In this document: positions 33,296 through 53,763 of the stretch, piece after piece
Layout of the letters: each line of letters opens with the position of its first letter
Position numbering within the stretch: the first letter of the stretch is position 1
NCBI GenBank assembly: GCA_016792845.1
Contig: JAEUKH010000043.1
Location: 153,846 to 217,845, forward strand
Direction: 5' to 3'
DNA from: Myxococcales bacterium
GTDB lineage: Bacteria; Myxococcota_A; Polyangia; Polyangiales; Ga0077539
DNA length: 64,000 nt
Translations under genes and position numbers: made by a program
Notes under the pieces: generated by a model
What the model was told of the DNA's origin: nothing
Seen by the model: only the letters and a program-made list of their open reading frames with translations
The model's database searches: none

Positions 33296-36259
33296 TCAGA
33301 GCGTCGCCGCGATCTCTTCGAGTTCGTAGGCTTCGATGACGTCGTTGGCCTTGATGTCAGGGGTGTTGTCGAGCGAGATACCGCACTCGAAGCCCTGCGC
33401 CACTTCCTTGACGTCTTCCTTGATGCGGCGAATCGAGGCGATCTTGCCCTCCCACTTCACCGCGCCGTCTCGCACGAGCCGCGCGTTCGCGCCACGCTTG
33501 ACCGACCCGTCGATGACCATGCAGCCCGCGACGATGCCGACCTTGGTGATGTTGAACACCTGGCGGATCTCGGCCTTGCCGAGAGCCTTCTCGACGAACA
33601 CCGGCTTGAGCTGACCGAGCATGAGCTGCTTCAGGTCGTCAACGGCCTCGTAGATCACGTTGTAGAACTTCAGCGCCACCTTGGCGTCGTCGGCCGCGGC
33701 CTGAGCCTTGCCCGCGGGGCGGACGTTGAAGCCGATGACCACCGCGTTGCTCGCCGAGGCGAGCTGCACGTCGGTCTCGGTGATCGCGCCCACCGCGCCG
33801 TGAATGACCCGAACCTGCACCTTCTCGGTCGACAGGGCCGTGAGGGCCTGGCGCAGACCTTCGACGGCGCCCTGGGCGTCGGCCTTGATGACCACGCCCA
33901 CCGTGGCCGCGCCGTCTTTCTGAAGCGCGCGGGCGATGGCGTCGAGGCCGCGGGTGAGGTCGATCTGCGGCTTGTTCACCTTCTCGATGGCCTTGAGCTC
34001 TTCGCTCACCTCTTGGGCCTTGCGGAGGTCGCTCGCGACGTAGAGCTTGTCGCCCGCGTTCGGCACATCGCTGAGACCCAAGATCTCGATCGGCGTCGAG
34101 GGGCCGGCCTTGTCGAGGGGCTTGCCGCGGTCGTCGAACATCGCGCGGATACGCCCGTACGCCGAGCCGACGAGCACCACGTCGCCGTTGCGCACGGTGC
34201 CCTCTTGCACGAGCACCCGGGCCACGGCGCCGCGGCCCTTGTCGAGCTTGGCCTCGAAGACCGTGCCCACGCCGGGCTTCTTCGGGTCGGCCTTCAGGTC
34301 GAGGATCTCGGTCTGAAGGGCGAGGGTCTCGAGCATCTCGTCGAGGCCCTGGCGCGCCTTCGCGCTCACCTTCGAGACGAGGGTCTCGCCGCCGAATTCT
34401 TCAGCGATGACCTCGTACTGCATGAGCTGTTGCAGCACCTTGTCGGGGTTGGCGTCGCCCTTGTCCATCTTGTTGAGGGCGACGATGAGCGGCACCTTGG
34501 CGGCCTTGGCGTGGTTGATCGCCTCGACCGTCGTGGGCATCACGCCGTCGTCGGCGGCCACCACGAGCACGGCCACGTCGGTGAGCTTCGCGCCGCGGGC
34601 ACGGAGCGCGGTGAACGCCTCGTGACCCGGCGTGTCGAAGAACACCACGGTGCCGCGCTTGGTGTTGACCCGGTACGCGCGCACCTCTTGGGTGATGCCG
34701 CCGGCCTCGCCCTCGGCGACCCGCGACCCGAGGATGGCGTCGAGCAGCGTGGTCTTGCCGTGGTCGACGTGACCCATCACCGTCACCACCGGCGCGCGCG
34801 GCATGAGCTCGGTCTTGCCCGAGTCGGCCGGGAGCGCCTTCTTGATGATGTCGTCGATGTTGAGGGCCACGTCTTCGACGGTGAACCCGAACTCGCTCGC
34901 GAGGAACTTGGCCGTGTCAGAGTCGAGCGTCGAGTTGATGTTCTTGCCCGTCTCGCCCGCTTGGATGAGCTTGATAAGCACGTCGGTGGCACGAATGCTC
35001 ATGCGGCGCGCGAGCTCTTGCAGCGAGATCTGGGCCTCGATCTTGATGACCTTCTTGTGCTGGGCCATCTCGGTCTGAGGCGTCTGCAGGCCGCGCCCGA
35101 GGCCGCCCATGCGACCCTGGTTTTGACCCCACGGGCGACCGCCCTGACCCTGATACCCCGGGCGACCCATCGAGCCGCCCATGCCAGGCCCGCCCGGGCG
35201 CTGCGGCGTACCCCGCCCCGGCACCGGACGACCCACCTGGTTGCGGTCGACGTTGACGATGGTCGGGCGACCCCGCGGGGGCATCCCGGGCCCACCCGGG
35301 CCTGAGGTCGGACCCATCGAGGGGCGACCCGGCCCGCCCATCGGCGGACCCATCGAGGGGCGACCCTGCGGCCGCGTGTTGGTCTCCTCGTACACGATGG
35401 TCTTCTTGATCGGATCCCATCGCGCGATGCCCGTACGCTTCTCACCCGGCGGCCCCGGCGGAACACTCGGCCGCGGCGGCGGGTTGCTCGGCCGTGACTC
35501 CTCGCGCGGCGCCTCGGCTTGGCGGCTCTCGTTGGCAGGCCCGCGCGGCGGCGCCGCGGGCTGCGGGCGCACCTCGACCCGCGCCACCGGCGGGGCCTTG
35601 GGGATCTCAACCGCCACAGGCTCGACCTTGGGCGCTTCGACCTTCACGGGTTCAACCTTCGGCGCTTCAACCACGGGCACTTCGACCTTCACGGGCTCGA
35701 CCTTGGGGGCCTCGACCACCGGCGCCTCAGCCCGCACGGGCTCGGCCTTCGGGGTCTCGACGACCGGCGCTTCGACCTTGGGCGCCTCGACCTTGGGCGC
35801 CTCGACCGCCGCGGGCTCGGCCTTCACGGGCTCAGCCTTCGGGGCCTCGACCGCGGGCTCGGCCTTCACGGGCTCGGGCTCGCGCGCCTCGACCCGGGGG
35901 CTCTCACCCCGCGGCGCCTCGGCCGAGGCGTCATGCGAGGCCTCTGCGCGAACGGGCTCGGGGGCGGGCTCTTCGCGCGGCGCGACCCGGGGCGCGGCGA
36001 CGGGGCGCGGCGGCGGCGCGGGCGGGGCCGGCGGCTCGACGCGCTTCAGCTTGCGAATGCCCGGCGCGACCTCGACCTCGACGAAGCTCGCCTGTCGGTC
36101 TTTCAAGATCTGACTCTTGATGATCTCGACGCTCGACCCCTCGACCTTCGACATCTTGTTCTTCACGTCGATGCCCATGGCGCGGATCTTCTGGAGGACG
36201 GTCTCCGTATCCATTTTGAGATCCGCTGCGATCTCGTACACTTTCACCGTACTCATCAT
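33296..36259 (-). CDS. infB: Translation initiation factor IF-2
   Basis: '[12 protein letters not shown]' G1 motif, 'DTPGHEAF' G3 and 'NKMD' G4. N-terminal region carries PEPVKAE/APKVE repeats. 987 aa. Confidence 0.95.
35560..35900. repeat. Degenerate tandem repeats (about 18-24 bp units) inside the infB N-terminal coding region
   Basis: Repeated 'gggctcgaccttg/cacgggctcg...' units encode [15 protein letters not shown]-type repeats. Confidence 0.6.
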
Positions 36260-37053
36260 CGCTCCTCCAGTCCCGCGAGGCGATCGAGTGTCGCCACGAG
36301 CTCCATCGCCAGCGGTGCGCTCTGCACTCCGAGGAGCGCAACCTCACCGCGACCCAACCACTGCCCAAGCTCAGCCTTTGAGCCGTATTTTCTAAGCACC
36401 GGGCCGCGGCTCTCGCCCTCGGCCTCGGTCTCTGCCGCGAGCGCGTGGGCGTGTTCGCCGGCGTCGCGGGCCACCACAATCAACGGTACCAACGTATGCT
36501 CCAACGCGGTCATGAGCGCCTCGGTGCCTACCGCGAGCGATCGGGTACGCCATGCGACCCCCACAAGGGAAGCCGCTTTTGACCTCAGACCGCGGGCCAA
36601 ATCACCCAAGACCACCACGGGGTCAAGGTCGCGCTGCACTTCGACCTTCAAACTGCGCTCGGCGGCGTGCCGCTTGACCATCTCGGTCACGCACCGACGC
36701 GTCGGGTGAACCCACGCGCCGCGCCCGCCTCGGGCCTTGCCGGGGTCGACCGCGACGCGCCCGTCGGGGCCCGCGACCACTCGCAGCATCACCTCGGGCC
36801 GGTCGCCCTGACGACAGCCGACGCACGTACGCCGCGGGCCCGTCGGGGCCTCGACCTCGCGCGTCGGCACCTCAACCGCCGGCGACCTCCCTGCCGCCGC
36901 GGGCGACGCCGCCGACGCCGCCTGACGCGGGGCCGTCGGGCGTGCGCCACCCTGGGGCTTGGGCGCCTGCGGGGCGCGGCCCTTTCGCGGTGACTTCGGG
37001 GTGGGTTTCAACGCTTCTGCCATGGTGATCAAAGGGTCTGTTCGTCTCCTCAA
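36256..37053 (-). CDS. YlxR (DUF448)/L7Ae-like fusion protein
   Basis: 'RTCVGCRQGDRPEVMLRVV' (YlxR) followed by an L7Ae/YlxQ-like region 'LAVGTEALMTALEHTLVPLIVVARDAGE'. Overlaps infB by 4 nt. Confidence 0.75.
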   Translation of the reverse strand: MRRRTDPLITMAEALKPTPKSPRKGRAPQAPKPQGGARPTAPRQAASAASPAAAGRSPAVEVPTREVEAPTGPRRTCVGCRQGDRPEVMLRVVAGPDGRVAVDPGKARGGRGAWVHPTRRCVTEMVKRHAAERSLKVEVQRDLDPVVVLGDLARGLRSKAASLVGVAWRTRSLAVGTEALMTALEHTLVPLIVVARDAGEHAHALAAETEAEGESRGPVLRKYGSKAELGQWLGRGEVALLGVQSAPLAMELVATLDRLAGLEER

Positions 37054-37083
37054 CGATGGTCTACGCGACGCGTTCGGGCCTCA

Positions 37084-38751
37084 TCACGAGGCCGCAGCCT
37101 CGTCGCCCGATGCACTCTCGGCGGCCTCGCGGCGCGCGGCCTCGATCACCTTCTGCTCGCTGCTCAAGAAGGTCGCCGCGCCCTGCTTGATCTGTCGCAC
37201 CTTCTTCAGCGACAGCGCCGTACGCTTCACGAGCTCTTCTTCGGTGATGCTGTTGAGCGCCTCGACGGTCTTGAGCCCCGAGGTCTCAAGGAGGCTCACG
37301 GTGTGCTCGCCAACGCCGCGCACGAACATCAGCCGGTCGCGCTCGCTGAGCGCGTCGGTGCGCTTCGAGGCCTCACGGATGCGCTTCTGCCGAAGCTCCT
37401 CCATCGCCTCTTCGGCGGCGGCCTTGATACGGTCGGCGTTCTCGGCGCCCCCGAGCCCGGGGATGCCCCCGAGCTCTTCGCTGCTCGCCTCGGCCACATC
37501 TTCGAGGTTGCGGAAGCCGAGCTTGTACATCGTCTGCGCCGCCGCCGGGGTGATGCCCGCGATGAGCGAGAGGGCGTCGATGCTCTCGTCTTCTTGCAGC
37601 TTGAATTTGCTCTCTGAGATGATGTCGAGCTTCCACCCGGTGAGCTGCGACGCGAGGCGCACGTTCTGGCCCTTGCGGCCGATGGCCAGCGAGAGCTTCT
37701 CGTCGGGCACCACGAGCTCCATGCTCTTGTCGCTCTCGTTGATCACCACCCGCGCGATCTCGGCCGGCGCGATGGCGTTGCAGACAAAGCGCGCGGGGTC
37801 GCGGTCGTAGGGCACGATGTCGATGCGCTCGCCCCGGAGCTCTTGCACCACGGCCTGCACCCGCGAACCCTTGACGCCCACGCAGGCGCCCACCGGGTCG
37901 ACGTCGGTGGCCTTCGAGGTCACCGCGATCTTGCTGCGCACGCCAGGCTCGCGGGCCGCCGCCACCACCCGCACGATGCCCTCATAGATCTCAGGCACCT
38001 CGGCCTCGAAGAGCTTGATGAGCAGCCCCACGTCGGTGCGCGACAAGAGCACCTGGGGCCCCTTGGCCTCGCGGTCGATGTCGCGAACGTACGCCACGAT
38101 GCGCTCGCCGGGCCGGTAGTTCTCGCGCGGCACCTGGTCGCGGGCCTTGAGGATGGCCTCGGTGCGCCCGAGGTCGACGATGATGTCGTTGCGCTCGAAG
38201 CGGCGAAAGATGCCCGTGATGATCTCGCCCTTGCGGTCTTTGTACTCGTTAAAGACCAGCTCGCGCTCGGCGTCGCGCACCCGCTGAATGATCACCTGCT
38301 TGGCGGCCTGCGCGGCGATGCGCCCGAAGCCCTTGCGCGCGGCCTTGAGGAGCAAAATGTCGCCGAACTGGCGCTCTTGCTCTTCGGCCTTGCGGTTGTC
38401 TTCGATGCGGTAAAACACCTGAAAATCGAGCTTGTCGCCGGCCTCGACGTCGAGCGAGAGGGCGTGCGCCTTTTCGAGCGAGATCTCTTGCTCGGGCTGC
38501 GCCACGTCGTCGACCACGGTCATGCGCTGAAAGAGGTCGACGCCCCCCTCGCGCTCGTTGAAGCGCGCGACGAGGTCACGGGTGCCACCGAGGTGCTTGC
38601 GCGCCGCCGAAAGAATGGCGCTCTCGAGAGTCTCGACGAGCACCGCACGCTCAATGCCCTTGTCCTTCGCGACCACGTCGAGGGTCGACGCGAGGTTGGG
38701 GTTCGCGGGAGCCGGGGCTGCCGGTGCCTGGGGTTGCTTGGTCGCCATGGT
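37084..38751 (-). CDS. nusA: Transcription termination/antitermination factor NusA
   Basis: S1 and two KH domains, C-terminal acidic repeats. Start at the internal 'MATKQPQ'. Confidence 0.95.
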
Positions 38752-38817
38752 GTCTGACCTTCCGACTGTCGTGGGGTCGTGCGAGGGACGCCGCATGGGT
38801 GCGGCGCCCGTCGCCCT

Positions 38818-42170: not shown

Positions 42171-44201
42171 GTGATTCGACTGGAGGTTGAGGTTGGCGAG
42201 GTGAGGGGTCGCGCGACCGAGCGTGACGCCGCGGAGATCACCCTGGGCCGCGCGCCGAGCTCTGACCTGCTCTTGCCCGACTGGCACATCTCGGGCTCGC
42301 ACGGCGTGCTGCGGGTCTTGCCCGAGAGCGGCGCGGTGCGGTACCGCGACCTGCGCAGCACCAACGGCTCGCGGGTGCGACGCGGCAGCGCGCTTCTGCC
42401 GGTCGACGGCTCGGTCGAGTTCGAGCAAGAGCTCCAGCCGGGTGATCGCCTTGAGCTCGGCGACCCGCAGCACGCGGTGGTGGTGAAGGTGAGCTTCACG
42501 CCCACCGCCGCCAAGGGGCCCTTTCTGCCGCCGACGGCCTCGGCCTTGAGCGCGACGATGCCGGGCGGCGAGGGCGCGGCCCGGGGGGTGCTTCGCGGCT
42601 CGACCCAGGTCGAGGTCGACCCCGAGGCCCACGTGGTGGCGCAGCGCGCGGTGGCCGACGTGGGCGAGGCGCGGCAGCAGGTCGAGCGCGACCCGGTGTC
42701 GTTCAAGACGGTGCTGGCGGCGCTCCAGAAGCTCTCGGGGGCGCTCGAGCTCGACGAGGTGCTCGACGCGGTGGCCGACGCGGTCTTCGAGGTGGTGCCG
42801 CGGGCGACGCACCTCACGGTTCACCTCCGCGACGAGAGCGTCGAGAAGCCGACCTATGTGCCGGTGACGACGCGGGTGCGCGGTGCGACGGGCATCCCCG
42901 CAGAGCCGGTGCCGGTGACCCGCTCGGTGGTGCGCAAGGTGATCGAGCAGCGCGCCGCGGTGCTCGCGGCCGACGCGATGCGCGAGGTGGGCGAGAGCGC
43001 CAGCATCATGGGCGCGAAGATCCTCTCGACGATGGGCGTCCCCTTGTGGAAGGGTGAAGACATCCCGGGCATTTTGCAGGTCGACAATCGCGCGAGCGCG
43101 GGCATCTTCAAAGAGCGCGACCTCGATCTCTTGATGGTGGTGGCGCAGCAGGCCGGCCTGGCCCTCGCCAACGCGCGGCTCTACCAGCGGGTCAAGCTCG
43201 CCGAGGCCAGCGCCCGCAGCGAGAACAGCTTTCTCAAGCAGCGGGCCCAGAAGAAGTTCGAGCGCATGATCGGCGACAGCAGCGCCATGCGCCAGCTCTT
43301 CGAGAAGCTCTCGAAGGTCATCGACACCCGGGTCACGGTGTTGATCGAAGGCGAGACCGGCACCGGCAAAGAGCTCGTGGCGAGCACCATTCATTATCAG
43401 TCTCGCCGAAAAGAGAAGCTCTTCATCGCGCAGAACTGCGCGGCGCTGCCCGAGACGCTGCTCGAGAGCGAGCTCTTCGGTCACAAGAAGGGCGCCTTCA
43501 CCGGCGCCACCGAAGACAAGAAGGGCCTCTTCGACCTGGCCGATGGCGGCACGCTCTTTCTCGACGAGATCGGCGAGATGCCACTGGGGCTCCAGGCCAA
43601 GATCTTGCGCGTCCTTCAAGAGGGCGAGGTGCGCCCGTTGGGCTCTGGGGTGACCCGCACCGTCGACGTTCGCATCGTCGCCGCCACCAACCGTAAGCTC
43701 GAAGACGAGGTCGCGGCGGGGCGCTTCCGGCAAGACCTCTATTATCGCTTGCAGGTCTTCCCGGTGCGCATCCCGCCCTTGCGCGAGCGTCGTGAAGACA
43801 TCCCGATTCTGGCGAACCACTTTTTGAAGCGGTACGCCCACGAGATGGGCAAGGCCATTCACGGCTTCTCTCAGCAGACCCTTGAGCTGATGATGAGTTA
43901 CAACTGGCCCGGCAACGTGCGCGAGCTCGAGAATGAAGTGCAGCGCCTGGTCATTCAGTCTGACCCGGGCGGCTACGTGATGGCCGAGCACCTTTCTCCG
44001 CGCATCCGCAACATCGAGGGCATCCTCGACAAGATTCGCCCCCCGCGGGGCACCCTCAAAGACATGATCGAGCACATCGAGAAGTGGCTCCTCATCGAGG
44101 CGTTGCGCGAACACGGTAACAACAAGAGCGCCACCGCGAAGACCTTGGGCATCACCCGCGAGGGTCTGCACAAGAAGCTGAAGTCGTACGGCATCAGCTG
44201 A
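42171..44201 (+). CDS. Sigma-54-dependent transcriptional activator with N-terminal FHA and GAF domains
   Basis: FHA-like N-terminus ('ITLGRAPSSDLLLPDWHISGSHG'). GAF region. AAA+ with 'GETGTGKE' and 'GAFTGA'. C-terminal Fis-type HTH ('ATAKTLGITREGLHKKLK'). Confidence 0.9.
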   Translation: MIRLEVEVGEVRGRATERDAAEITLGRAPSSDLLLPDWHISGSHGVLRVLPESGAVRYRDLRSTNGSRVRRGSALLPVDGSVEFEQELQPGDRLELGDPQHAVVVKVSFTPTAAKGPFLPPTASALSATMPGGEGAARGVLRGSTQVEVDPEAHVVAQRAVADVGEARQQVERDPVSFKTVLAALQKLSGALELDEVLDAVADAVFEVVPRATHLTVHLRDESVEKPTYVPVTTRVRGATGIPAEPVPVTRSVVRKVIEQRAAVLAADAMREVGESASIMGAKILSTMGVPLWKGEDIPGILQVDNRASAGIFKERDLDLLMVVAQQAGLALANARLYQRVKLAEASARSENSFLKQRAQKKFERMIGDSSAMRQLFEKLSKVIDTRVTVLIEGETGTGKELVASTIHYQSRRKEKLFIAQNCAALPETLLESELFGHKKGAFTGATEDKKGLFDLADGGTLFLDEIGEMPLGLQAKILRVLQEGEVRPLGSGVTRTVDVRIVAATNRKLEDEVAAGRFRQDLYYRLQVFPVRIPPLRERREDIPILANHFLKRYAHEMGKAIHGFSQQTLELMMSYNWPGNVRELENEVQRLVIQSDPGGYVMAEHLSPRIRNIEGILDKIRPPRGTLKDMIEHIEKWLLIEALREHGNNKSATAKTLGITREGLHKKLKSYGIS

Positions 44202-44217
44202 GGCGGGTGCACCCGCC
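44202..44217. promoter_or_regulatory. Perfect 16-bp palindrome GGCGGGTGCACCCGCC immediately after the FHA-GAF activator stop codon
   Basis: Seen directly in the sequence. Either a terminator stem or an operator upstream of Cys-rich paralogue 1. Confidence 0.4.
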
Positions 44218-44341
44218 GCATGGGGATTGTCTCCCGCGGCCGAAGTCAGCTACCTTCGCGTGACGAGGTCTGCGAGCGGCGAGGGCGACCCGTAGTGGGC
44301 GGCGACGTCTTCGTGGGCCTTTCAATTTGGAGGCGACGAAG

Positions 44342-47152
44342 ATGTCAACCCGAAGGCGATGGGCCGGGCCGACGGTGCCGGTCTGGGCTCTTTCAGTGCT
44401 TGCGGTGCTTGGGTGTAGCGGTCGGTCGGTGGTGGGCGGCCCTGAAGACAGCGGCGCCCCGGCGAGCGATCGTCCGACGAGCAACATCGACGCCGCCGAC
44501 GCGGCGGCCGACAGCGGCAATGACGCGGGGGCCGACATCGGCTTCGACAGCCCCGACACGGGCCCGCCGCCCGATGTGTTCTCGGGGTGTCGCACCAACG
44601 CAGACTGCTCGGGCAACGAGTTCGGGTACCGCGTCTGCAACACGATGACCAACAGCTGCGTCGAGTGCACGGCGCAGAGCGAGATGTGCGGCGAGGGCGC
44701 GTACTGCGACCCCACCACCAACCGCTGCGCCCGCGGCTGCCGCGACGACATGGCCTGCCGCGCGGGCACCGTGGCCGTCGACGGCGGCCTCGCCGACGCG
44801 AGCGCGGGCCCGGGCCTCTTCTGCAACCCCAACACCCGCACCTGCGTCGAGTGCGTCTCGAACGACCAGTGCCCGGCGGGCAACCTCTGCATGGGCAACC
44901 AGTGCGTGCGCGGGTGCACCGACACGAGCCGCTGCGCCGCGGGCGAGAGCTGCTGCGCCGGGGCCTGCGTGAACACCCAAGACAACACCGCCCACTGCGG
45001 CATGTGCGGCACGCTCTGCCAGGCGCCGAACGGCGAGCCCGCGTGCAGCATGGGCCGCTGCGTCGTCGGCTCGTGCATGGGCAGCTTCCGCGATTGCGAC
45101 GACAACGTCGGCAACGGGTGCGAGACCAACACCAACAACGACCTCAGGCACTGCGGCGGCTGCGGCCGCGCCTGCGAAGAGCGCCCCAACACCGCGGCGT
45201 CGTGCGCGATGGGCGTCTGCGAGTACCGCTGCCGCGACGGCTTCGCCGACTGCAACATGGACCCCACCGACGGCTGCGAGGTCGACCTCAACAACAGCCC
45301 CGCCCACTGCGGCATGTGCGGCAACCGCTGCGCCCGCGACAACGCCACCGCGGCGTGCCGCAACGGCACCTGCGCCCTCGGCGCCTGCAACGAGGGCTTC
45401 GCCAACTGCGACATGATGGAGCCCAACGGCTGCGAGGTTGACACCCGCACGAGCACGACCCACTGCGGCACCTGCGGCACGATGTGCTCGGCCCCGAGCA
45501 ACGGCACCAGCGCGTGCGCCAACGGCAGCTGCTCGGCCCGCTGCGCGATGCCCTTCGCCGACTGCAACGGCGAGGCGGGCGATGGCTGCGAGGCCAACCT
45601 CAACGAGAACGTGCTCCACTGCGGGAGCTGCGGCAACCGCTGCTCGATCCCCAATGCGACGGGGGTCTGCCAGATGGGGGCCTGCGCCATCGGCGCCTGC
45701 AACGACGGCTTCGCCGACTGCAACATGAACCCCGCAGACGGCTGCGAGACCAACCTCAACGCGAGCGTGGCCTCATGCGGCCGCTGCGGCAACGCGTGCC
45801 GCACGCCCAACGCCTCGCCGGCCTGCCGCAACGGCACCTGCGCCATCGGGGCCTGCAACCCGGGCTTCGCCGACTGCAACGGCAACCCCGCAGACGGCTG
45901 CGAGACCGTGGTCAACAGCGACATCGCGAACTGCGGCCGCTGCGGCAACGTCTGCCCCCGCCCCTCGAACGGCAGCCCCATCTGCACCAATGGCACCTGC
46001 GGCATCGGGGCTTGCGCCTCAGGCACCGCCGACTGCGACATGAACTCGGCCAACGGCTGCGAGACCACCATCAGCAACAACCTCAACAACTGCGGCGCCT
46101 GCGGCCGTATGTGCCCGACCCCCGCGAACGGCAGCGCCGTGTGCGTGGGCGGCGTGTGCAGCCTCGGCACCTGCAACACGGGCTTCGTCGACTGCGACCT
46201 CAACGCCGCCAACGGATGCGAGGTCAACGTCACCACCGACGTCAACAACTGCGGCGGCTGCGGCCGTCGCTGCGTCGCGCCCACCGGCGGGTCGGTGACC
46301 TGCTCGGCCGGGGCTTGTATCCAGGCGTGCCCCTCGGGCCAGCTCAACTGCAACGGCGTCTGCCGGGCCTCGGGCAGCTGCACGAGCGCGGGCACCGGCG
46401 GATGCCAGACCACCGGGAGCCTGAGCTGCTCGGGCACCACCACGGTGTGCTCGGCCACGCCCCGCACCTCGGGCGCCTGCACCACCCCGGTGAACGGCGT
46501 CTGCGGCTCGGGCGGCGTCTGCGCCTGCGCCGCGGGTCAGACCAACTGCAGCGGCACCTGCCGCGCCCTCGCCACCGACAACGCCAACTGCGGCGCCTGC
46601 GGCAGCGTGTGCACCGCCCCGGCGGGCGGCTCGGCCACCTGCACCGGGGGCACCTGCGTGATCACCTGCCCCGCGGGTCAAACCAACTGCGGCGGCACCT
46701 GTCGGAACCTCACCGCAGACAACGCCAACTGCGGCGCCTGCGGGCGCGCGTGCGCGACCAACCAGGCCTGCGTCGCGGGCGTCTGCGTGGGCCAAGGCTC
46801 GCTCCGCTTCACCCTCACCTGGGACACCAACGGCGACATGGACCTCCACGTCTTGCCCCCCTGCGGCACCGAGATCTACTACGGTCGCCTCTCGGCCTGC
46901 GGCGGCACCCTCGACCGCGACGACACCTCGGTGCGCGGCCCCGAGAACGTGTTCTGGAACTCCTCGTACACGCCCGGTCGGTACTACGTCTGCGCCGAGT
47001 CGTACTCGAGCGCCGTGTCGCGCGCGAACTACACCCTCACCGTGGTCCGAAACGGCGTCACCGTGCGCACCGTCACGGGCAATCGCGGCGGCGTCACCGA
47101 CGGCAACCGCGCCTGCGGCCCCGGCTTCAACCAGCTCACCATCGACCTCTGA
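44342..47152 (+). CDS. Giant secreted Cys-rich repeat lipoprotein, paralogue 1
   Basis: 'ggagg' RBS then 'MSTRRRWAGPTVPVWALSVLAVLGCSG' (lipobox). Start may instead be 44327. About 13 copies of a ~48-aa module 'CGxCGxxCxxxNxxxxCxxGxCxxxCxxGFADCDxxxxNGCExxL'. Ends in a shared ~110-aa C-terminal domain ('LRFTLTWD..GDMDLH..PPCGTEIYYG'). Confidence 0.75.
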   Translation: MSTRRRWAGPTVPVWALSVLAVLGCSGRSVVGGPEDSGAPASDRPTSNIDAADAAADSGNDAGADIGFDSPDTGPPPDVFSGCRTNADCSGNEFGYRVCNTMTNSCVECTAQSEMCGEGAYCDPTTNRCARGCRDDMACRAGTVAVDGGLADASAGPGLFCNPNTRTCVECVSNDQCPAGNLCMGNQCVRGCTDTSRCAAGESCCAGACVNTQDNTAHCGMCGTLCQAPNGEPACSMGRCVVGSCMGSFRDCDDNVGNGCETNTNNDLRHCGGCGRACEERPNTAASCAMGVCEYRCRDGFADCNMDPTDGCEVDLNNSPAHCGMCGNRCARDNATAACRNGTCALGACNEGFANCDMMEPNGCEVDTRTSTTHCGTCGTMCSAPSNGTSACANGSCSARCAMPFADCNGEAGDGCEANLNENVLHCGSCGNRCSIPNATGVCQMGACAIGACNDGFADCNMNPADGCETNLNASVASCGRCGNACRTPNASPACRNGTCAIGACNPGFADCNGNPADGCETVVNSDIANCGRCGNVCPRPSNGSPICTNGTCGIGACASGTADCDMNSANGCETTISNNLNNCGACGRMCPTPANGSAVCVGGVCSLGTCNTGFVDCDLNAANGCEVNVTTDVNNCGGCGRRCVAPTGGSVTCSAGACIQACPSGQLNCNGVCRASGSCTSAGTGGCQTTGSLSCSGTTTVCSATPRTSGACTTPVNGVCGSGGVCACAAGQTNCSGTCRALATDNANCGACGSVCTAPAGGSATCTGGTCVITCPAGQTNCGGTCRNLTADNANCGACGRACATNQACVAGVCVGQGSLRFTLTWDTNGDMDLHVLPPCGTEIYYGRLSACGGTLDRDDTSVRGPENVFWNSSYTPGRYYVCAESYSSAVSRANYTLTVVRNGVTVRTVTGNRGGVTDGNRACGPGFNQLTIDL

Positions 47153-47175
47153 GACAGAGCGCCCCACAGGCACTC

Positions 47176-47203
47176 CGGGCCTGACCCGGAGTGTCTGATC
47201 GCC
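47176..47203 (+). terminator. Stable hairpin (cactccggg-cctga-cccggagtg) 24 nt after the stop of Cys-rich paralogue 1
   Basis: 9-bp perfect stem, followed by a second short inverted repeat (agtgtc...gacact). There is no U-tract, so it is an intrinsic-terminator-like or attenuator-like structure only. Confidence 0.4.
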
Positions 47204-47397
47204 GGACACTCGTTCTCTGCGCACTTACAAACATTTTCATAGCTCCGCGGGCTCGTAGTTTTGAGCCGCAGGTGACGCGGCGAAACTTCCGCACGGGGGC
47301 GATTCGTGCGACATTCTGAGGGCCATGATGCTTCGTCGTGGGCCTCGGGCGCCCACGCGACGTTTTCGATTCGCTTCTACGAGAGGACATTTGCGCA

Positions 47398-50300
47398 ATG
47401 AAACAGGCTGAAAAGCTGGCGCTCCTGTCGACGTTTCTGGTGGCCCTCGCGGGCTGTACCGGCGCGTCGGTGGTGGGCGGCCCCGGGGGCGACGCCTCCA
47501 CAGGCACCGACGTACAGGGCAGCGATGCCGACGTCGCCACCCTCGACACGGGCAACGACACAGGCGGCAACGACACAGGCGGCAACGACACAGGCGGCAA
47601 CGACAGCGGCCCGGTCGATGCAGGCCCCACCCGGTGCATGTCGAACAACGACTGCATGGGCAACGCCGCGGGCGGCGTCTGCAACACCATGACGGGCCAG
47701 TGCGTCCAGTGTCTCGGCAGCGAGACCTGCGAGGCCGGTCAGTACTGTGACACCGCCACGAGCAACTGCGTGCGCGGCTGTCGCGACGACAACGCCTGCA
47801 ACACGGCGATGGGCGGCGGCGGCGGCGGCGACGACGCTGGCACCGGCGCGATGCTCCGCTGCAACCCGATGACCCGCACCTGCGTCGAGTGCTACGAAGA
47901 CGCCCAGTGCCCGGCGGGCACGCTCTGCCGCGGCAACAGCTGCGTGCGCGGGTGCACCGATTCGAGCCGCTGCGCGATGGGCGAGAGCTGCTGCGCGGGC
48001 GCCTGCGTGAACACCCAGAGCAACGCAGACAACTGCGGCACCTGCGGCACGGTCTGCAATGTGCCGAACGCCCAGGCGGCCTGTGCGATGGGGCAGTGCG
48101 CCGTGGGCTCGTGCACCGGCGACCGCCGCGACTGCGACAACATGGTCGGCAACGGCTGCGAGACCGACACCAACTCCAGCCTCATGCACTGCGGCGGCTG
48201 CGGGCGCGTCTGCAACACGCCGCCGAACGCGACCGCGAGCTGCACCGCCGGGAGCTGCGGCTTCACCTGCGTGACCGGCTTCGCCGACTGCGACAACGAC
48301 CCGGCCAACGGCTGCGAGACCGACCTCAACTCGAGCGCCGACAACTGCGGCACCTGCGGCACGCGCTGCATGCTCACCAACGCCACGGCGGCCTGTATGG
48401 CGGGCCGCTGCGCGGTGGCCGCCTGCGCCAACGGCTTCGGCGACTGCGACACCAACGCGGCCAACGGCTGCGAGACCAACATCCAGACCAGCACCTCGCA
48501 CTGCGGCACCTGCGGCAGCGCCTGCGCGATGCCCTCGAACGGCGCGGCGGCCTGCACCATGGGCAGCTGCGGCATCGCGATGTGCGGCGCCGGCTTCGCT
48601 GACTGCGACGGCAACACCTCGAACGGCTGCGAGACCAACACCCAGACCAGCGCCACCCACTGCGGGGCCTGCGGCGCCGAGTGTCGGCTCAACAACGCCA
48701 CCGCGTCGTGCGCCGCCGGGGCCTGCGCCGTGGCGACCTGCACCACGGGCTTCGCCAACTGCGACAACAACGCGGCCAACGGCTGCGAGGTCAACACCCG
48801 CGGCGACGTCAACAACTGCGGCGCCTGCGGCACCGTGTGCGCCGCCAGCAACGGCACCCCGAGCTGCAACGCCGGGGCCTGCACCGTCGGCAGTTGCAAC
48901 GACGGCTTCGCCAACTGCGACTCGAACAACGCCAACGGCTGCGAGACCAACACGCAGACCGACACCAACAACTGCGGCGCCTGCCGCAACACCTGCAACC
49001 TCGCCAACGCGAGCTCGGTGTGCCGCGGCGGCTCCTGCGCCATCGGCACCTGCAACGCGGGCTTCGCCGACTGCGACGGCAACGCCGCCAACGGCTGCGA
49101 GACCAACACCAACACCTCGCTCTCGGCGTGCGGCATGTGCGGGCGCGTCTGCAACACCGCGAACGGCACCCCGGTCTGCACCAACGGCGCCTGCGGCGTC
49201 GGCGCCTGCGACACGGGCTTCGCCAACTGCGACAACAACGCGGCCAACGGCTGCGAGGTGGTGGTCCAGAGCGACATCCGTAACTGCGGCTCCTGCGGCC
49301 GCGTGTGCCCCACGCCCTCGAACGGCAGCGCGGTCTGCACCCTCGGCCAGTGTGGCATCGGCACCTGCACGTCGGGCACCGCCGACTGCGACAACAACAC
49401 CGCCAACGGCTGCGAGACCAACACCAACACCAGCGTGCTGAACTGCGGCGCCTGCGGCCGCACCTGCCCCACGCTGCCCAACGCCTCGACCACCTGCACG
49501 GGCGGTCTCTGCGGCCTCGGGGCCTGCGCGACGGGCTTCGCCAACTGCGACAACAACCCCACCAACGGGTGTGAGACCAACCTCACCAACACCGTCGGGT
49601 CGTGCGGCGCCTGCGGCCGCGCGTGCAGCTTCGCCAACGCGTCGGCCACCTGCGCCAACAGCACCTGCGCCCTCGGCACTTGCAACGCGGGCTTCGCCAA
49701 CTGCGACGGCAACGCGGCCAACGGCTGCGAGACCAACATCAACACCACCCTCGCGGCCTGCGGCGCTTGCGGCCGTGTCTGCGCCGCCCCCACCGGCGGC
49801 TCGGCCACCTGCACGGGCGGCACCTGCGTCCAGGCCTGCCCGGCGGGTCAGTCGAACTGCGGCGGCGTGTGTCGCCCCACCGGCGCGGCCTGCACCAGCG
49901 CGGGCACCGGTGGATGCGCCCAGACCGGCACCATCGTGTGCTCGGGCACCACCACCACCTGCTCGGCCGTGCCGCGCACCTCGGGCACCTGCACCGCGCC
50001 CGCGGGCGGCACCTGCGGCGCGGGTGGCGTCTGCGCCTGCCCCACGGGCCAGACCAACTGCTCGAACACCTGCCGCGCCCTCACCACCGACGTGAACAAC
50101 TGCGGCGCCTGCGGCCGCATTTGCACCGCCCCCACGGGCGGCTCGGTGACCTGCGCGAACAGCACCTGCGTCCAGGCCTGCCCGGCGGGTCAGTCGAACT
50201 GCGGCGGGGTGTGTCGCCCCACCGGCGCGACCTGCACCAGCGCGGGCACCGGCGGATGCGCCCAGACCGGCACCCTCGTGTGCTCGGGCACCACCACCGC

Positions 50301-50865
50301 TTGCTCGGCCGTGCCGCGCACCTCGGGCACCTGCACCGCGCCCGCGGGCGGCACCTGCGGCGCGGGTGGCGTCTGCGCCTGCCCCACGGGCCAGACCAAC
50401 TGCTCGAACACCTGCCGCACCCTCACCACTGACAACGCCAACTGCGGCGCCTGCGGTCGCGCGTGCGGCACCAACCAGGCCTGCGTCGCGGGCGTCTGCG
50501 TCGGCCAAGGCTCGCTGCGCTTCACCCTCACCTGGGATCGCGCCGGCGACATGGATCTCCACCTCTTGCCGCCCTGCGGCACCGAGATCTACTACGGTCG
50601 GCTCATGGCCTGCGGCGGCACCCTCGACCGCGACGACACCTCGGCCACCGGGCCCGAGAACATCTTCTGGAGCTCGTCGTACACCCCCGGCCAGTACGTG
50701 GTCTGCCCCGAGGCGTACAACAGCGCCGCGCAGAGCGCCAACTGGACCCTCGTCGTCGTGCGCAACGGCGTCGAGGTCGCGCGCCGCACCGGCGTGCGTA
50801 ACCGGGTCGACGGCAACACCGTGTGCTCGACGAGCTTCCCCGGCGCGATCGTGCTGAACCTCTGA
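47398..50865 (+). CDS. Giant secreted Cys-rich repeat lipoprotein, paralogue 2
   Basis: 'gagagg' RBS then 'MKQAEKLALLSTFLVALAGC' (lipobox). Same 8-Cys module about 16 times, an internal duplication, and the same C-terminal domain as paralogue 1. Confidence 0.75.
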   Translation: MKQAEKLALLSTFLVALAGCTGASVVGGPGGDASTGTDVQGSDADVATLDTGNDTGGNDTGGNDTGGNDSGPVDAGPTRCMSNNDCMGNAAGGVCNTMTGQCVQCLGSETCEAGQYCDTATSNCVRGCRDDNACNTAMGGGGGGDDAGTGAMLRCNPMTRTCVECYEDAQCPAGTLCRGNSCVRGCTDSSRCAMGESCCAGACVNTQSNADNCGTCGTVCNVPNAQAACAMGQCAVGSCTGDRRDCDNMVGNGCETDTNSSLMHCGGCGRVCNTPPNATASCTAGSCGFTCVTGFADCDNDPANGCETDLNSSADNCGTCGTRCMLTNATAACMAGRCAVAACANGFGDCDTNAANGCETNIQTSTSHCGTCGSACAMPSNGAAACTMGSCGIAMCGAGFADCDGNTSNGCETNTQTSATHCGACGAECRLNNATASCAAGACAVATCTTGFANCDNNAANGCEVNTRGDVNNCGACGTVCAASNGTPSCNAGACTVGSCNDGFANCDSNNANGCETNTQTDTNNCGACRNTCNLANASSVCRGGSCAIGTCNAGFADCDGNAANGCETNTNTSLSACGMCGRVCNTANGTPVCTNGACGVGACDTGFANCDNNAANGCEVVVQSDIRNCGSCGRVCPTPSNGSAVCTLGQCGIGTCTSGTADCDNNTANGCETNTNTSVLNCGACGRTCPTLPNASTTCTGGLCGLGACATGFANCDNNPTNGCETNLTNTVGSCGACGRACSFANASATCANSTCALGTCNAGFANCDGNAANGCETNINTTLAACGACGRVCAAPTGGSATCTGGTCVQACPAGQSNCGGVCRPTGAACTSAGTGGCAQTGTIVCSGTTTTCSAVPRTSGTCTAPAGGTCGAGGVCACPTGQTNCSNTCRALTTDVNNCGACGRICTAPTGGSVTCANSTCVQACPAGQSNCGGVCRPTGATCTSAGTGGCAQTGTLVCSGTTTACSAVPRTSGTCTAPAGGTCGAGGVCACPTGQTNCSNTCRTLTTDNANCGACGRACGTNQACVAGVCVGQGSLRFTLTWDRAGDMDLHLLPPCGTEIYYGRLMACGGTLDRDDTSATGPENIFWSSSYTPGQYVVCPEAYNSAAQSANWTLVVVRNGVEVARRTGVRNRVDGNTVCSTSFPGAIVLNL

Positions 50866-50970: not shown

Positions 50971-52356
50971 TCAGCCCTCGTCGCGCTCGCCGCGCTTGCC
51001 GAGGCCGTGCTCGTCGAGCTTGGCGTAGAGCTGCGGCCGGGCGATGCCCAAACTGCGCGCGGCCTCGGCGCGGTTGCCCTTGGCCCGTTCGAGGGCCTTC
51101 AAGATCATCCGTCGCTCAAGGGCCGCAACGGCCTCACGGAGGCTCCCGAACTCTTCGGTCGGGTCGACCCCGCCAGATGCCTGTTCAGGCCCCGCACGCC
51201 CCCTCTGAATCGCTTCAGGGAGGTCTTGGGCGTCGATCACCTCGCCGCCGGTCATGGCCGCGGCCCGCGCGATGGAGTGTAGGAGTTCACGCACGTTGCC
51301 CGGCCAGTCGTAGCGCTGGAGGCACGCGATGGCCTCTTCCGACACGGCCCGGGCGTGGGTGCCCTTGAGGGCGTGGGCGACGAGGAGGGCGATGTCGCTC
51401 TTGCGGGCCCTCAGCGGCGGCAGCGCGACCTCGAGCACCGCGAGGCGGTAGTAGAGGTCGTCGCGGAGGGTCGACCCGGCCTCTCCGGGGCGCACCGGGC
51501 GGTGCGTCGCGGCGATCACCCTGCACTTCATCGTCAGGCTCTCGGTGCCTCCGACCCGCTCGTAGCCTTGCGATTGCAGCACCCTGAGGAGCCGGGTCTG
51601 GAGGCCTGGCTCGAGGTCGCCGATCTCGTCGAGAAAGAGCGTGCCGTCGGCGGCGAGCTCGATGCGCCCGGCCTTGCGAGCGACCGCGCCGGTGAAGGCT
51701 CCGCGCTCGTGGCCGAAGAGCTCGCTCTCGATGAGCGTGGGCGGAAGCGCGGCGAGGTTGACGGCCACGAAGGGCGCGCGGCTCCGGGCGCTGTTACGGT
51801 GGATGGCCTCGGCGACCCGCTCTTTGCCAGTACCGGTCTCGCCGGTGATCAAGACCGGGGCGTCGCTCGCGGCGGCACGCCCGATGAACTTCCAGACCTG
51901 GAGCATCGCCGCGCTCGCGCCTACGAGGTCGCCCGGCGCCTCGGCGCGCGGCGCCGCCGACTCGACGGGCCGCTCGACGGCGGGCTTGAGCTCTCGCTGA
52001 CGGATGGCCCGCTGCACCATGTCGAGCAGGCTCGGGAGGTCGAAGGGCTTGGTGGCGTAATCGAAGGCCCCGGCGCGCATCGCGCGGATCGTGCGATCGC
52101 TGTCGCCGTAGGCCGTGGCCATGATGACCGGCACCTCGGGCGCGAGGCCCCCGCGCATGGCCTCAAGGAGCGCGATGCCGTCGCCGTCTTTCAGCCGAAC
52201 ATCGAGCAGCACGCAATCGAAGCGCTCGGCCTCGATCCGGCGGCGCGCCTCGACCACCCCTTCGGCCGCCACGGCCTGATGCCCGAGGCGCTCGACGGCC
52301 TTGACGAGCCCCTCGCGAAGCCCGCGCTCATCATCGACGACCAACACTCTGCCCAT
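50971..52356 (-). CDS. NtrC-family sigma-54-dependent response regulator
   Basis: REC domain ('VLVVDDE', 'DCVLLDVRL'), AAA+ with 'GETGTGKE' and 'GAFTGA', C-terminal HTH. Confidence 0.9.
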   Translation of the reverse strand: MGRVLVVDDERGLREGLVKAVERLGHQAVAAEGVVEARRRIEAERFDCVLLDVRLKDGDGIALLEAMRGGLAPEVPVIMATAYGDSDRTIRAMRAGAFDYATKPFDLPSLLDMVQRAIRQRELKPAVERPVESAAPRAEAPGDLVGASAAMLQVWKFIGRAAASDAPVLITGETGTGKERVAEAIHRNSARSRAPFVAVNLAALPPTLIESELFGHERGAFTGAVARKAGRIELAADGTLFLDEIGDLEPGLQTRLLRVLQSQGYERVGGTESLTMKCRVIAATHRPVRPGEAGSTLRDDLYYRLAVLEVALPPLRARKSDIALLVAHALKGTHARAVSEEAIACLQRYDWPGNVRELLHSIARAAAMTGGEVIDAQDLPEAIQRGRAGPEQASGGVDPTEEFGSLREAVAALERRMILKALERAKGNRAEAARSLGIARPQLYAKLDEHGLGKRGERDEG

Positions 52357-52368
52357 GGTGACCCGCTT

Positions 52369-53763
52369 CTATGCACCAAACTCGGCCCGAAAGGTGGTCG
52401 TCGCGCCGCGGCGTTCGTACCGCAACGTGCCCCCGTGGGCGACGGCCACGGCCCGCGAGAGCGCCAGCCCGAGCCCCGTACCCGACGGCCGCGTGGTGAA
52501 GAAGGGCTCGAAGAGCTCGTGCGCTCGGCTCGGGTCGACGCCGGCGCCCTGATCGTGCACCGCGAGCCGCGCAACCTGCCCGTCGACGGCCACCTCGACG
52601 CGCACCACGCCGCCCTCGGGCGAGGCCTCGACGGCGTTGCGCAGGAGGTTGTCGACGAGCCGCGTGACGGCGTCTCGGTCGAGCGAGAAGCGCCCCGCGC
52701 CCTCGACCTCGAAGCGCACGCCGCGCTGCGCCGCGAGGGGCCCGGCGAGCTCGCAGCGGGCCTCACAGAGCGCCCTGAGGTCGGTCTCGGCGCGCACCAC
52801 CGCGCGGCGACCCGAGATCACCAGGAGGTCGCTCACGAGGCGGTCGAGCCGCGCGATCTCGTCGCCCACGTCGCGGAGGTCTTGGGCCACACCGGGCGGC
52901 TGCTCCGCGAGCTCCATCGCGGCGAGGTCGACCTTGAGCTTGATCGACGCGAGGGGGTTTCGCACCTCATGGCTCACCCCTGCCACGACGCGCCCGAGGG
53001 CCGCCAAGCGCTCGCGGGCGTTGAGGGCCTCGCGCAGCCGGGCTTGCTCGTTGCGCTCGAATTGCAGCGCCCGCGCGAGCTCGGCGATGCCGTCGGAGAT
53101 CGCCGCCAGCTCGGTCATCTCGGGGCGCTCGATGGGGGCCGCGAGGTCGCCCGCGAGGGCCGCGAGCGAGCGACGCAGGGTGTTCGCGCCGTCTCGCAGC
53201 GAGGCCACCCCGCGCAGGGCGAGGCCCACGAGAATTACCGCCGACAGCGCGAGGAGCGCCACCGCGCCGCGCCACCGCTCGTCGACCCCCGCGGGCACAT
53301 ACACCGCCGCCCAGACCCGCGCCCCATCGACGCGGCGCGCCGCGCCCACCACGACCCTGCGCTCGAGCGGTCGGCGGTTGCCCCGCAGCCCGCGCGGAGG
53401 CCCCGCTTCGCCCGCCACGGTGACCACCCCCTCGGCGCCCGCGGCCCGCGCCAACGCGGCGTCACGGACGGCGACGAGCTCAGGCGAGAGGAGCCCGCCT
53501 CCGAGCTCGCGACCGTCGGCGAAGCGCACCCCCCACGGCCCCCGCCCGCGGTGCCGCGGCGCGCCCATCAACGGGTCGTCAGGGCCCAGCGCCGGGTGCT
53601 CAGAGAGCATTCTGAGCACCTCGGCCTCGGCCATCGCCTCGCCCCGTTCGAGCCGCGCTCGGAGGCTCGTCTGCGCGAGGCCCACCACCGCGGCAAGGGC
53701 GCCGACGAGGGTGAGCAGCGCGAACACCGAGAGCACCACGAAGCGTTGACGGAGCGAGCGCAT
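52369..53763 (-). CDS. Sensor histidine kinase (two TM segments, periplasmic sensor, HisKA, HATPase_c)
   Basis: 'VSHEVRNPLASI' H-box, 'GTGLGLALSRAV' G2 box. TM helices 'VVLSVFALLTLVGALAAVVGL' and 'AVALLALSAVILVGLAL'. Confidence 0.85.
   Translation of the reverse strand: MRSLRQRFVVLSVFALLTLVGALAAVVGLAQTSLRARLERGEAMAEAEVLRMLSEHPALGPDDPLMGAPRHRGRGPWGVRFADGRELGGGLLSPELVAVRDAALARAAGAEGVVTVAGEAGPPRGLRGNRRPLERRVVVGAARRVDGARVWAAVYVPAGVDERWRGAVALLALSAVILVGLALRGVASLRDGANTLRRSLAALAGDLAAPIERPEMTELAAISDGIAELARALQFERNEQARLREALNARERLAALGRVVAGVSHEVRNPLASIKLKVDLAAMELAEQPPGVAQDLRDVGDEIARLDRLVSDLLVISGRRAVVRAETDLRALCEARCELAGPLAAQRGVRFEVEGAGRFSLDRDAVTRLVDNLLRNAVEASPEGGVVRVEVAVDGQVARLAVHDQGAGVDPSRAHELFEPFFTTRPSGTGLGLALSRAVAVAHGGTLRYERRGATTTFRAEFGA

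Follow-up and report, generated by a model that had tools for sequence, protein, structure and literature searches.

What is the role of two very large, cysteine-rich proteins that are encoded side by side in an uncultured myxobacterium and carry no label beyond "hypothetical protein" at NCBI? The proteins, hereafter A and B, come from a 64,000-nucleotide window (the whole stretch of DNA analyzed) of a Myxococcales bacterium, spanning positions 153,846 to 217,845 of contig JAEUKH010000043.1 in assembly GCA_016792845.1. The list of open reading frames (ORFs) and their translations place two tandem plus-strand genes, gene A (44342..47152; 936 residues; JNK72_22940) and then gene B (47398..50865; 1155 residues; JNK72_22945), which together fill the span 44342-50865 exactly and bear out the two tandem paralogues described in a first-pass annotation of this DNA. 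Their products are 100% identical to the corresponding proteins of a Myxococcales metagenome-assembled genome (MAG; matches P0332 and P0309). Judged from their sequences, A and B are paralogous, predicted Sec-exported lipoproteins of a Polyangiales-type myxobacterium in which most of the chain consists of small Cys-knit modules. The reading developed here, to which we give even odds, is that each protein forms a disulfide-braced rod, tethered by lipid and constant in length, that presents a conserved C-terminal block ending in a DUF2135-like, probably Ca2+-binding β-sandwich in contact with a ligand.

An Eight-Cysteine Repeat of 52-53 Residues

The central part of both proteins is an array in which each unit starts at a CGxCGxxC motif and recurs with a period of 52 or 53 residues (156-159 nt). 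Gene A contains eight full repeats (residues 219-636; 44996..46249, plus strand) and gene B eleven (residues 213-787; 48034..49758, plus strand). The 19 copies follow the consensus CGxCGxxCxxxNAxAxCxxGxCxxGxCxxGFADCDxNxANGCETNxN; eight cysteines (C1, C4, C8, C17, C22, C27, C34, and C42) together with G2, N12, G41, and E43 are invariant in all of them, and 13% of residues are Cys. In the DNA itself, Tandem Repeats Finder (TRF) recovers the 156-nt period (A, 45235-46267; B, 48131-49782, 10.5 copies, a score of 830-1064). This regularity is far beyond chance. The first-pass annotation had the regular eight-cysteine module and its consensus right, but it gave the unit as about 48 residues and the copies as about 13 and 16; counting every CGxCGxxC start, including those of shorter Stig1-type modules that follow the array, gives 11 in A and 14 in B.

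Copies share on average 50% of their amino acids and 67% of their DNA positions, and units at corresponding places in the two proteins match each other in order (A1-B1, A2-B2, A3-B3, A4-B4, and A7-B9). Colinear pairing combined with low identity shows that the array predates the duplication that gave rise to A and B and is not being homogenized; by this comparison it is old. An AlphaFold2 model of B repeats 6-8 (pLDDT 94.9, pTM 0.74) contains a β-hairpin core in each repeat. Outside Cys, Gly, and Glu, the sole invariant residue in the aligned A and B repeats is the Asn of column 12. It lies within an N-x-S/T sequon (NAT, NGT, NAS, or NGS) in 15 of the 19 copies and in 34 of 66 repeats from homologs, and could represent either a structural Asn turn or a site of N-glycosylation.

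Beyond the cysteine of the lipobox, A has 120 cysteines and B 154. The count is even in both proteins, which would follow if every cysteine were paired, and in the proposed structure each module would be locked by four disulfides formed in the periplasm, making the array a stiff, protease-resistant rod of fixed length. Could the cysteines hold metal instead? The densely spaced CxxCxxxC and Asp/Asn-rich motifs might serve as ligands of Cu, Zn, or Fe, as in MopE or metallothionein, in place of disulfides, and the high Cys content would suit such a function, as would the Pfam "Cu-binding_MopE" motif present in 5 of 42 array-bearing relatives and the likeness, below threshold (E 0.9), of CGxCGxxC to the cluster motifs of ferredoxins. 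However, the number of cysteines is strictly even and their framework does not vary, AlphaFold2 folds the repeat confidently as β-hairpin mini-domains without cofactors, no significant Pfam metal-domain match is found in A or B, and the signal peptides are of the Sec lipoprotein type, with no twin-arginine motif conserved in B or the orthologs. Metal chelation is accordingly rated as quite improbable.

Relationship of the Repeat to Stig1-Type and MXAN_6577-Like Modules

To which family, if any, does the repeat belong? The NCBIfam model NF041328, "MXAN_6577-like cysteine-rich protein," scores 127 bits on whole protein A and 106.2 bits on whole protein B, above its curated cut-off of 100. It is a subfamily model of 145 positions and describes a curated family without an assigned function. 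On the arrays alone its scores are 80.2 bits for A and 77.3 bits for B (E about 1e-22), below the same cut-off; two repeats reach 20.7 bits and a single 52-residue repeat gives no match. The model aligns to the Stig1-type block that follows the array and, more weakly, to about 2.5 consecutive 52-residue repeats of A and B, whereas it lacks their 52-residue period, their invariant Asn, and their DCDxxxxNGCE loop. In Pfam, the 52-residue array of B matches zero families at E <= 10, including Stig1, and whole protein B likewise matches none. The sole candidate when one repeat was scanned against Pfam and NCBIfam, a CPL1-like match at E 0.43, was rejected as noise.

To call the repeat "novel-looking," as the first-pass annotation did, was therefore to overstate the case: the array has no Pfam match, but a curated model exceeds its cut-off on both proteins. 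Of an existing Pfam or TIGRFAM match with a known function, half is present, since NF041328 matches and its function is not known. The same annotation rightly kept the module apart from the "CxDGxxxxGExCDDGN" repeat, for which the TIGR02232 model gave no match on the whole proteins (E <= 1) or on pieces of them (E <= 10). Its proposal of an EGF- or laminin-EGF-like core did not hold, as no six-cysteine EGF framework or fold emerged from Pfam or PDB sequence matches. Sequence-profile searches of the PDB turned up no usable match for a three-repeat profile, for a profile of the 43-residue module described below, or for the post-array block of B. Rods of tandem EGF-like domains (Notch, fibrillin, and Del-1) are nevertheless listed among the closest known systems.

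Pfam Stig1 (PF04885) matches protein A through its post-array block, at 25.2 and 27.3 bits against a gathering threshold of 24.1, and matches neither of the 52-residue arrays. The connection between array and Stig1 comes from paralogs in related MAGs, which carry 20-40 copies of a 43-residue, eight-cysteine module (CGACGRVCxxGxxCxxGxCxxxCxxGxTNCSGVCRDLxTDxxN) together with the same C-terminal domain. These 43-residue modules score 106.7 bits with Pfam Stig1, and hhalign matches the 52-residue profile to the 43-residue profile with a probability of 96.7% (E 4.7e-10) over the first ~36 columns only. From this match, the 52-residue unit is a longer derivative of a 43-47-residue Stig1-like or MXAN_6577-like module. 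Both types share the start of the framework, CGxCGxxC...C..G.C...C..G...C, whereas the 52-residue unit has two insertions, of about four residues around the invariant Asn and about five ahead of its final Cys, and its C-terminal half differs, having been remodeled to GFADCDxxxxNGCE.

Does kinship with Stig1 imply a role in signaling? In plants, STIG1 proteins are secreted ligands of small size with a single domain and are not built as lipoprotein arrays; STIG1 binds a receptor kinase and phosphoinositides. A and B might likewise be secreted ligands or lipid-binding proteins, or else carriers of a toxin or antimicrobial. The Stig1 score of the A post-array block, which lies above the gathering threshold, would agree with this, as would the signaling genes found nearby: those for a sigma-54 enhancer-binding protein (EBP), a histidine kinase, and a response regulator at this locus, and for a Ser/Thr kinase or a GGDEF protein in other clades. 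However, small single-domain peptides are a poor precedent for lipid-anchored arrays of ~1000 residues, Pfam and NCBIfam scans detect no toxin or enzyme domain in A or B, and the neighboring signaling genes are not conserved across the family. We give a role of this kind very little credence. Matches to "Stig1" in a paper on myxobacterial antimicrobial peptides turned out to be Stigmatella identifiers and are irrelevant.

Predicted Lipid Anchors, N-Terminal Regions, and the Post-Array Block

Both proteins open with a lipoprotein signal peptide, read from the sequence as MSTRRRWAGPTVPVWALSVLAVLG preceding the lipobox Cys25 in A (44342..44416, plus strand) and MKQAEKLALLSTFLVALAG preceding Cys20 in B (47398..47457, plus strand). 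The lipoboxes (...LAVLG-C25, or VLGC, in A and ...VALAG-C20, or LAGC, in B) satisfy the pattern [LVI][ASTVIL][GAS]C, and lipidation is predicted from them. The "TRRRW" in A was not accepted as a twin-arginine motif, as B and the orthologs do not have it. After the lipobox both proteins continue with "SVVGG" and then an Asp/Gly/Thr/Asn-rich linker; orthologs retain the lipobox followed by an x-G-x-S-V/I-V/I-G-G motif. Directly after the terminal β-sandwich, A ends in ...NQLTIDL and B in ...GAIVLNL, with no sortase or MYXO-CTERM-type tag at either C terminus. Of the two types of sorting signal raised earlier, the lipobox is thus present in both proteins but the sortase or C-terminal tag is not. 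The earlier description of A and B as exported and disulfide-rich gains support from the lipoboxes, which recur in orthologs, and from the even number of cysteines that follows them. In B the linker after the lipid anchor includes a low-complexity (GNDTG)n stretch (47551..47605, plus strand) encoded by a 15-nt x 3.7 tandem repeat with 100% matches in TRF; this microsatellite-like sequence is a possible site of length variation.

Between linker and array lies a further Cys-rich region. In A (residues 83-218; 44588..44995, plus strand) it is of the type found in the TraA stalk: taken alone it matches TIGR04201 (Myxo_Cys_RPT) in three stretches at 26.3 bits (cut-off 25; 19.1 bits on whole protein A), and it also matches the Cys-repeat part of the TraA model NF033759. 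This match to a known myxobacterial repeat concerns the part of A ahead of the array and does not extend to the 52-residue array itself. The homologous region of B (residues 80-212; 47635..48033, plus strand) was delimited from the translation and from NF041328, whose best stretch in B (residues 186-339) covers the end of this region and repeats 1-2.

How far does the comparison with TraA extend? TraA of Myxococcus xanthus consists of a PA14-like head, a TIGR04201 Cys-rich stalk, and a MYXO-CTERM anchor, and its Cys-rich tandem repeats are, by a published proposal, a rigid stalk on which a binding domain is displayed (PMC3325183). A and B are similar in being predicted myxobacterial envelope proteins with the logic of stalk and head, and in the N-terminal Cys region of A. 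They differ in having the opposite polarity, with the lipid anchor at the N terminus and the head at the C terminus, in lacking PA14 and MYXO-CTERM, and in a main repeat that belongs to another family; the TraA model scores 30 bits on A, far below its cut-off of 750.

The array is followed in both proteins by Cys/Gly/Thr-rich segments, as had been noted at the outset. In A this block (46250..46780, plus strand) comprises one 113-residue Cys/Gly/Thr-rich unit, one 47-residue Stig1-type unit, and a CGACGRAC...C cap, and scores 60 bits with NF041328 beside the Stig1 match of 27.3 bits given above. In B (49759..50493, plus strand; NF041328 50.8 bits) it comprises two 114-residue Cys/Gly/Thr-rich units and a cap, and TRF reports a tandem duplication at 49758-50460 with a period of 342 nt, 2.1 copies, and 92% matches. 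Set against the ~67% DNA identity of the 52-residue array, this duplication is much younger, and it accounts for part of the difference in size between A and B.

A C-Terminal Domain Related to DUF2135

What would such a stalk carry? Both proteins end in a β-sandwich domain of ~110-120 residues (A, 46781..47149; B, 50494..50862; both plus strand) that is 70% identical between them and contains the acidic loops DMDLH and LDRDD..GPEN. The first-pass annotation was right that a C-terminal domain is shared. Four cysteines are conserved in it. Several of its 33 close homologs are labeled "YfaP (DUF2135 family)" by JGI. In an alignment of 32 members (A, B, and 30 homologs) D21, D45, D47, E55, and N56 are invariant, and AlphaFold2 run on the homolog alignment returns an all-β domain (pLDDT 93.2, pTM 0.86).

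An hhalign comparison of the domain profile with E. coli YfaP residues 141-214 gives a probability of 96.6% (E 4.9e-10) over 72 columns at 42% identity; none of the 32 alignment members matches Pfam PF09906 (DUF2135) in hmmscan at E <= 10. The domain is thus remotely homologous to DUF2135/YfaP, with DUF2135 as its closest family. The motifs LR..L.WD...D.DLHV..P.G and G.LD.D.T.G.GPE are common to YfaP and the A/B domain, whereas the four conserved cysteines are a feature of the myxobacterial domain; the N-terminal part of YfaP is of another kind, and YfaP lacks the Cys-rich stalk. E. coli YfaP is encoded in the yfaS alpha-2-macroglobulin gene cluster.

Foldseek with the domain model found nothing significant. 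The nearest solved folds are TerD, the C-domain of the KP-43 subtilase, and the collagen-binding domains of collagenases, and a PDB profile search gave weak matches to subtilase C-domains (E 0.03-0.07). The earlier suggestion of a PPC or P-domain jelly-roll was thus roughly right at the level of the fold, which is a β-sandwich with subtilase and collagenase PPC-type neighbors, but DUF2135/YfaP is closer, and searches for PF04151, P_proprotein, or a strong fold match to them returned none. TerD, the KP-43/SubHal C-terminal domain, and the collagen-binding (PPC-type) domains of ColG and ColH are all Ca2+-binding β-sandwich accessory domains. Because the acidic residues are invariant and several of the top fold neighbors bind Ca2+, a Ca2+ site is suggested by analogy. 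Binding of Ca2+ is probable for the acidic loops, which would also be the part that meets the ligand.

A genome scan with the C-terminal profile finds 66 loci of at least 48% identity, all in MAGs of uncultured Polyangiales/Myxococcota and often many per genome. The ORFs that bear the domain fall into several classes: B-like (~1200 residues, 11 repeat spacings), A-like (~975-1060 residues, 9-10 spacings), a class of ~800 residues with 8, those with 20-40 copies of the 43-residue module, and others with different Cys-rich bodies. Weaker relatives (36-49% identity) form the C terminus of membrane proteins in Alphaproteobacteria and an Anaerolineae MAG (loci L067-L081, e.g., L067:9074-10354, L072:8963-10354, and L068:8462-10372). 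These proteins of 410-640 residues have few cysteines and consist of an N-terminal soluble region, one transmembrane segment, a Pro/Glu-rich or coiled segment, and the DUF2135-like end, a second, unrelated architecture of the domain. At some MAG loci the long arrays of 43-residue modules are partly read in a shifted frame, giving "LRRLR..." runs (L022:3941-10369 and L030:4838-10369). This suggests frameshift errors of assembly or collapsed repeats, and that gene calls in such arrays are unreliable; many truncated "proteins" of 100-200 residues are therefore found among the matches to the C-terminal domain.

Conserved Copy Number and Exchangeable Ends

The repeat is far more widespread than this terminal domain. 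A three-repeat profile retrieves 13,722 proteins (clusters at 50% identity) at E <= 1e-3 from 1.84 billion cluster representatives, and 3,271 at E <= 1e-30. The best 150 matches reach 4,295 residues and 49 copies, and about half have a lipobox; none of these 150 has a DUF2135-like end. Pfam scans of 42 of these mostly find nothing, and otherwise modules typical of extracellular proteins: FG-GAP, Kelch, and YWTD propellers, Laminin_G_3, Amidase_2, TIG, LTD, MopE, or Stig1. Across the family the repeat therefore looks like a modular stalk with exchangeable ends.

Homologs from cultured Chondromyces (P0361, CAP_2185 of C. apiculatus, and P0325 of C. crocatus) have the repeat array with a different β-rich C-terminal domain, of the pattern ...NWY.v.FTGNTN...FRFD.R.NC...VLIRVYRV...; their UniRef cluster name, "Tryptophan synthase alpha chain," looks like a mis-annotation. 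A protein deposited under the rotifer Adineta steineri (P0346, 1139 residues) has the same 52-residue repeats in a Lys/Ile/Asn-rich, low-GC-style composition and could reflect contamination from an AT-rich bacterium or horizontal transfer. Given that composition, the repeat is not confined to high-GC myxobacteria, whichever origin applies.

Six orthologs of B, 58-60% identical and 1151-1169 residues long, all have exactly 11 repeats, with only one or two gapped positions relative to B over the 575-residue array. With Cys positions set aside, the array of these orthologs is 40-49% identical to that of B, the post-array block 48-71%, and the C-terminal domain 52-73%. The Cys framework and the length are thus constrained while residues at the surface vary, and conservation is greater at the distal end, which is the pattern expected of a structural spacer with a functional tip. 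The stalk with a terminal module put forward in the first-pass annotation fits these data on copy number, exchange of heads, and conservation of the tail. In the proposed arrangement the N-terminal lipid would tether the rod to a membrane, and the rod would hold the C-terminal block, composed of the Stig1-like units and the DUF2135-like domain, at a set distance. A and B would then act as an adhesin or receptor for a component of the matrix, of prey, or of a neighboring cell.

An alternative is that the rods are themselves building material of an extracellular matrix, coat, cuticle, or developmental structure, possibly cross-linked by disulfides, and that the C terminus has no specific receptor role. 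Many paralogs per genome (at least seven loci in MAG STL-MYX9) and the very long arrays of up to 49 copies elsewhere would be in keeping with this, and the TraA paper (PMC3325183) describes an association with the extracellular matrix as typical of Cys-rich proteins. The genes are also flanked by sigma-54 activators. In myxobacteria such activators often control development. However, no sigma-54 -24/-12 element (TGGCAC-N5-TTGC-like) lies upstream of A or B; the lipid anchor suits a tethered protein and not a bulk matrix component; with an even number of Cys there is no obvious unpaired one left to cross-link molecules; and conservation is highest in the post-array block and C-terminal domain, which points to a specific role for that end of the protein. 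A purely structural role is on balance unlikely, while deserving more weight than the metal and signaling alternatives above.

Several points weigh against a fixed-length rod with a ligand-binding tip. Repeat number is not absolutely fixed, as P0310, which is 70% identical to B, has 13 repeats. Surface exposure of A and B is assumed, and most Gram-negative lipoproteins face the periplasm. The case for Ca2+ binding is drawn solely from the annotations of fold neighbors and from acidic motifs, literature searches for MXAN_6577 and DUF2135 gave no papers, and the genes have no conserved partner, their neighbors being specific to each clade (the sigma-54 EBP here, GAF-GGDEF in one clade, and a redoxin with a Ser/Thr kinase in another).

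Coding Frames and Genomic Context

Is each array truly coding? In a window of ~71% GC long ORFs also arise on the opposite strand, and two of these (44194-46485 and 47892-49823, minus strand) cover the same DNA as the genes. They, and the frameshifts inside the repeat arrays of some related MAG loci, would be the grounds for regarding A and B as artifacts of composition or of repeat misassembly in a 70% GC genome. The GC content at third codon positions (GC3) is 0.95 in the plus frame; the plus strand is the coding strand for A and B, and the antisense ORFs are the usual high-GC mirror frames. With homologs numbering in the thousands, conserved signal peptides, curated family matches for both proteins, pLDDT values of 93-95, and colinear orthologs as well, an artifact is effectively refuted already.

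A GGAGG lies 7 nt upstream of the ATG of gene A. The 245-nt gap between the genes contains, just 3' of gene A, an inverted repeat with a 9-bp stem (CACTCCGGG...CCCGGAGTG; 47171..47193, plus strand, read from the sequence), which may mark where transcripts end or are processed between the two genes. A terminator scan missed it because it lacks a T run, and the combined sigma-70 and terminator scan performed no better than on shuffled sequence.

Upstream of A on the same strand is the gene for the sigma-54 EBP, an FHA-GAF-AAA+ protein (42171-44201, plus strand), and downstream of B on the opposite strand are those for an NtrC-type response regulator, a second sigma-54 EBP (50971-52356, minus strand), and a histidine kinase (52369-53763, minus strand). 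The sole near-consensus sigma-54 site in the window (TGGCAC-N5-xTGC; 59270, minus strand) lies well away from A and B. A synteny comparison found neither the A-B tandem nor the neighbors in this window repeated at any of 80 genome loci, and the context gives no functional lead. Genes with nusA and infB domain sets (NusA and IF-2; 33296-38796, minus strand) lie ~5-10 kb upstream, placing the pair in a core chromosomal context and not in an obvious mobile element. In the clade with ~800 residues and eight repeats, a thioredoxin/AhpC-TSA-like redoxin and a DUF6029 protein are encoded 5' of the gene and a Ser/Thr kinase with AAA_16 3' of it (L042:5289-5969 and L042:6010-7947; also L043, L050, and L051); the redoxin might assist disulfide handling.

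Implications

The definition of the 52-residue unit, its huge spread without a dedicated model, the conserved copy number, and the link between the tail and DUF2135 are new. Taken together they allow a tentative proposal, which we hold with less assurance than the rod-and-tip reading of A and B: the unit may be a distinct domain family still lacking a model, abundant as an extracellular repeat in bacteria, and may serve as a Ca2+- and disulfide-stiffened ruler of defined length that sets the reach of a DUF2135-type, Ca2+-dependent head. Current views would not be overturned, since Cys-rich repeat surface proteins are already a recognized myxobacterial theme, and to a specialist in myxobacterial surface proteins the finding is useful more than surprising.

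If the proposal holds, a building block that can be defined would become recognizable in a very large number of metagenomic "hypothetical proteins," and Pfam/InterPro would gain a new repeat model as a sister to Stig1 and NF041328. DUF2135/YfaP, which is without a known role even in E. coli, would gain the hypothesis of a β-sandwich with a Ca2+ site at the tip of a stalk and, were the ruler to prove correct, its first functional context. For the myxobacteria themselves, the conserved number of repeats would mean that they may use disulfide-knit rods as envelope spacers of set length.

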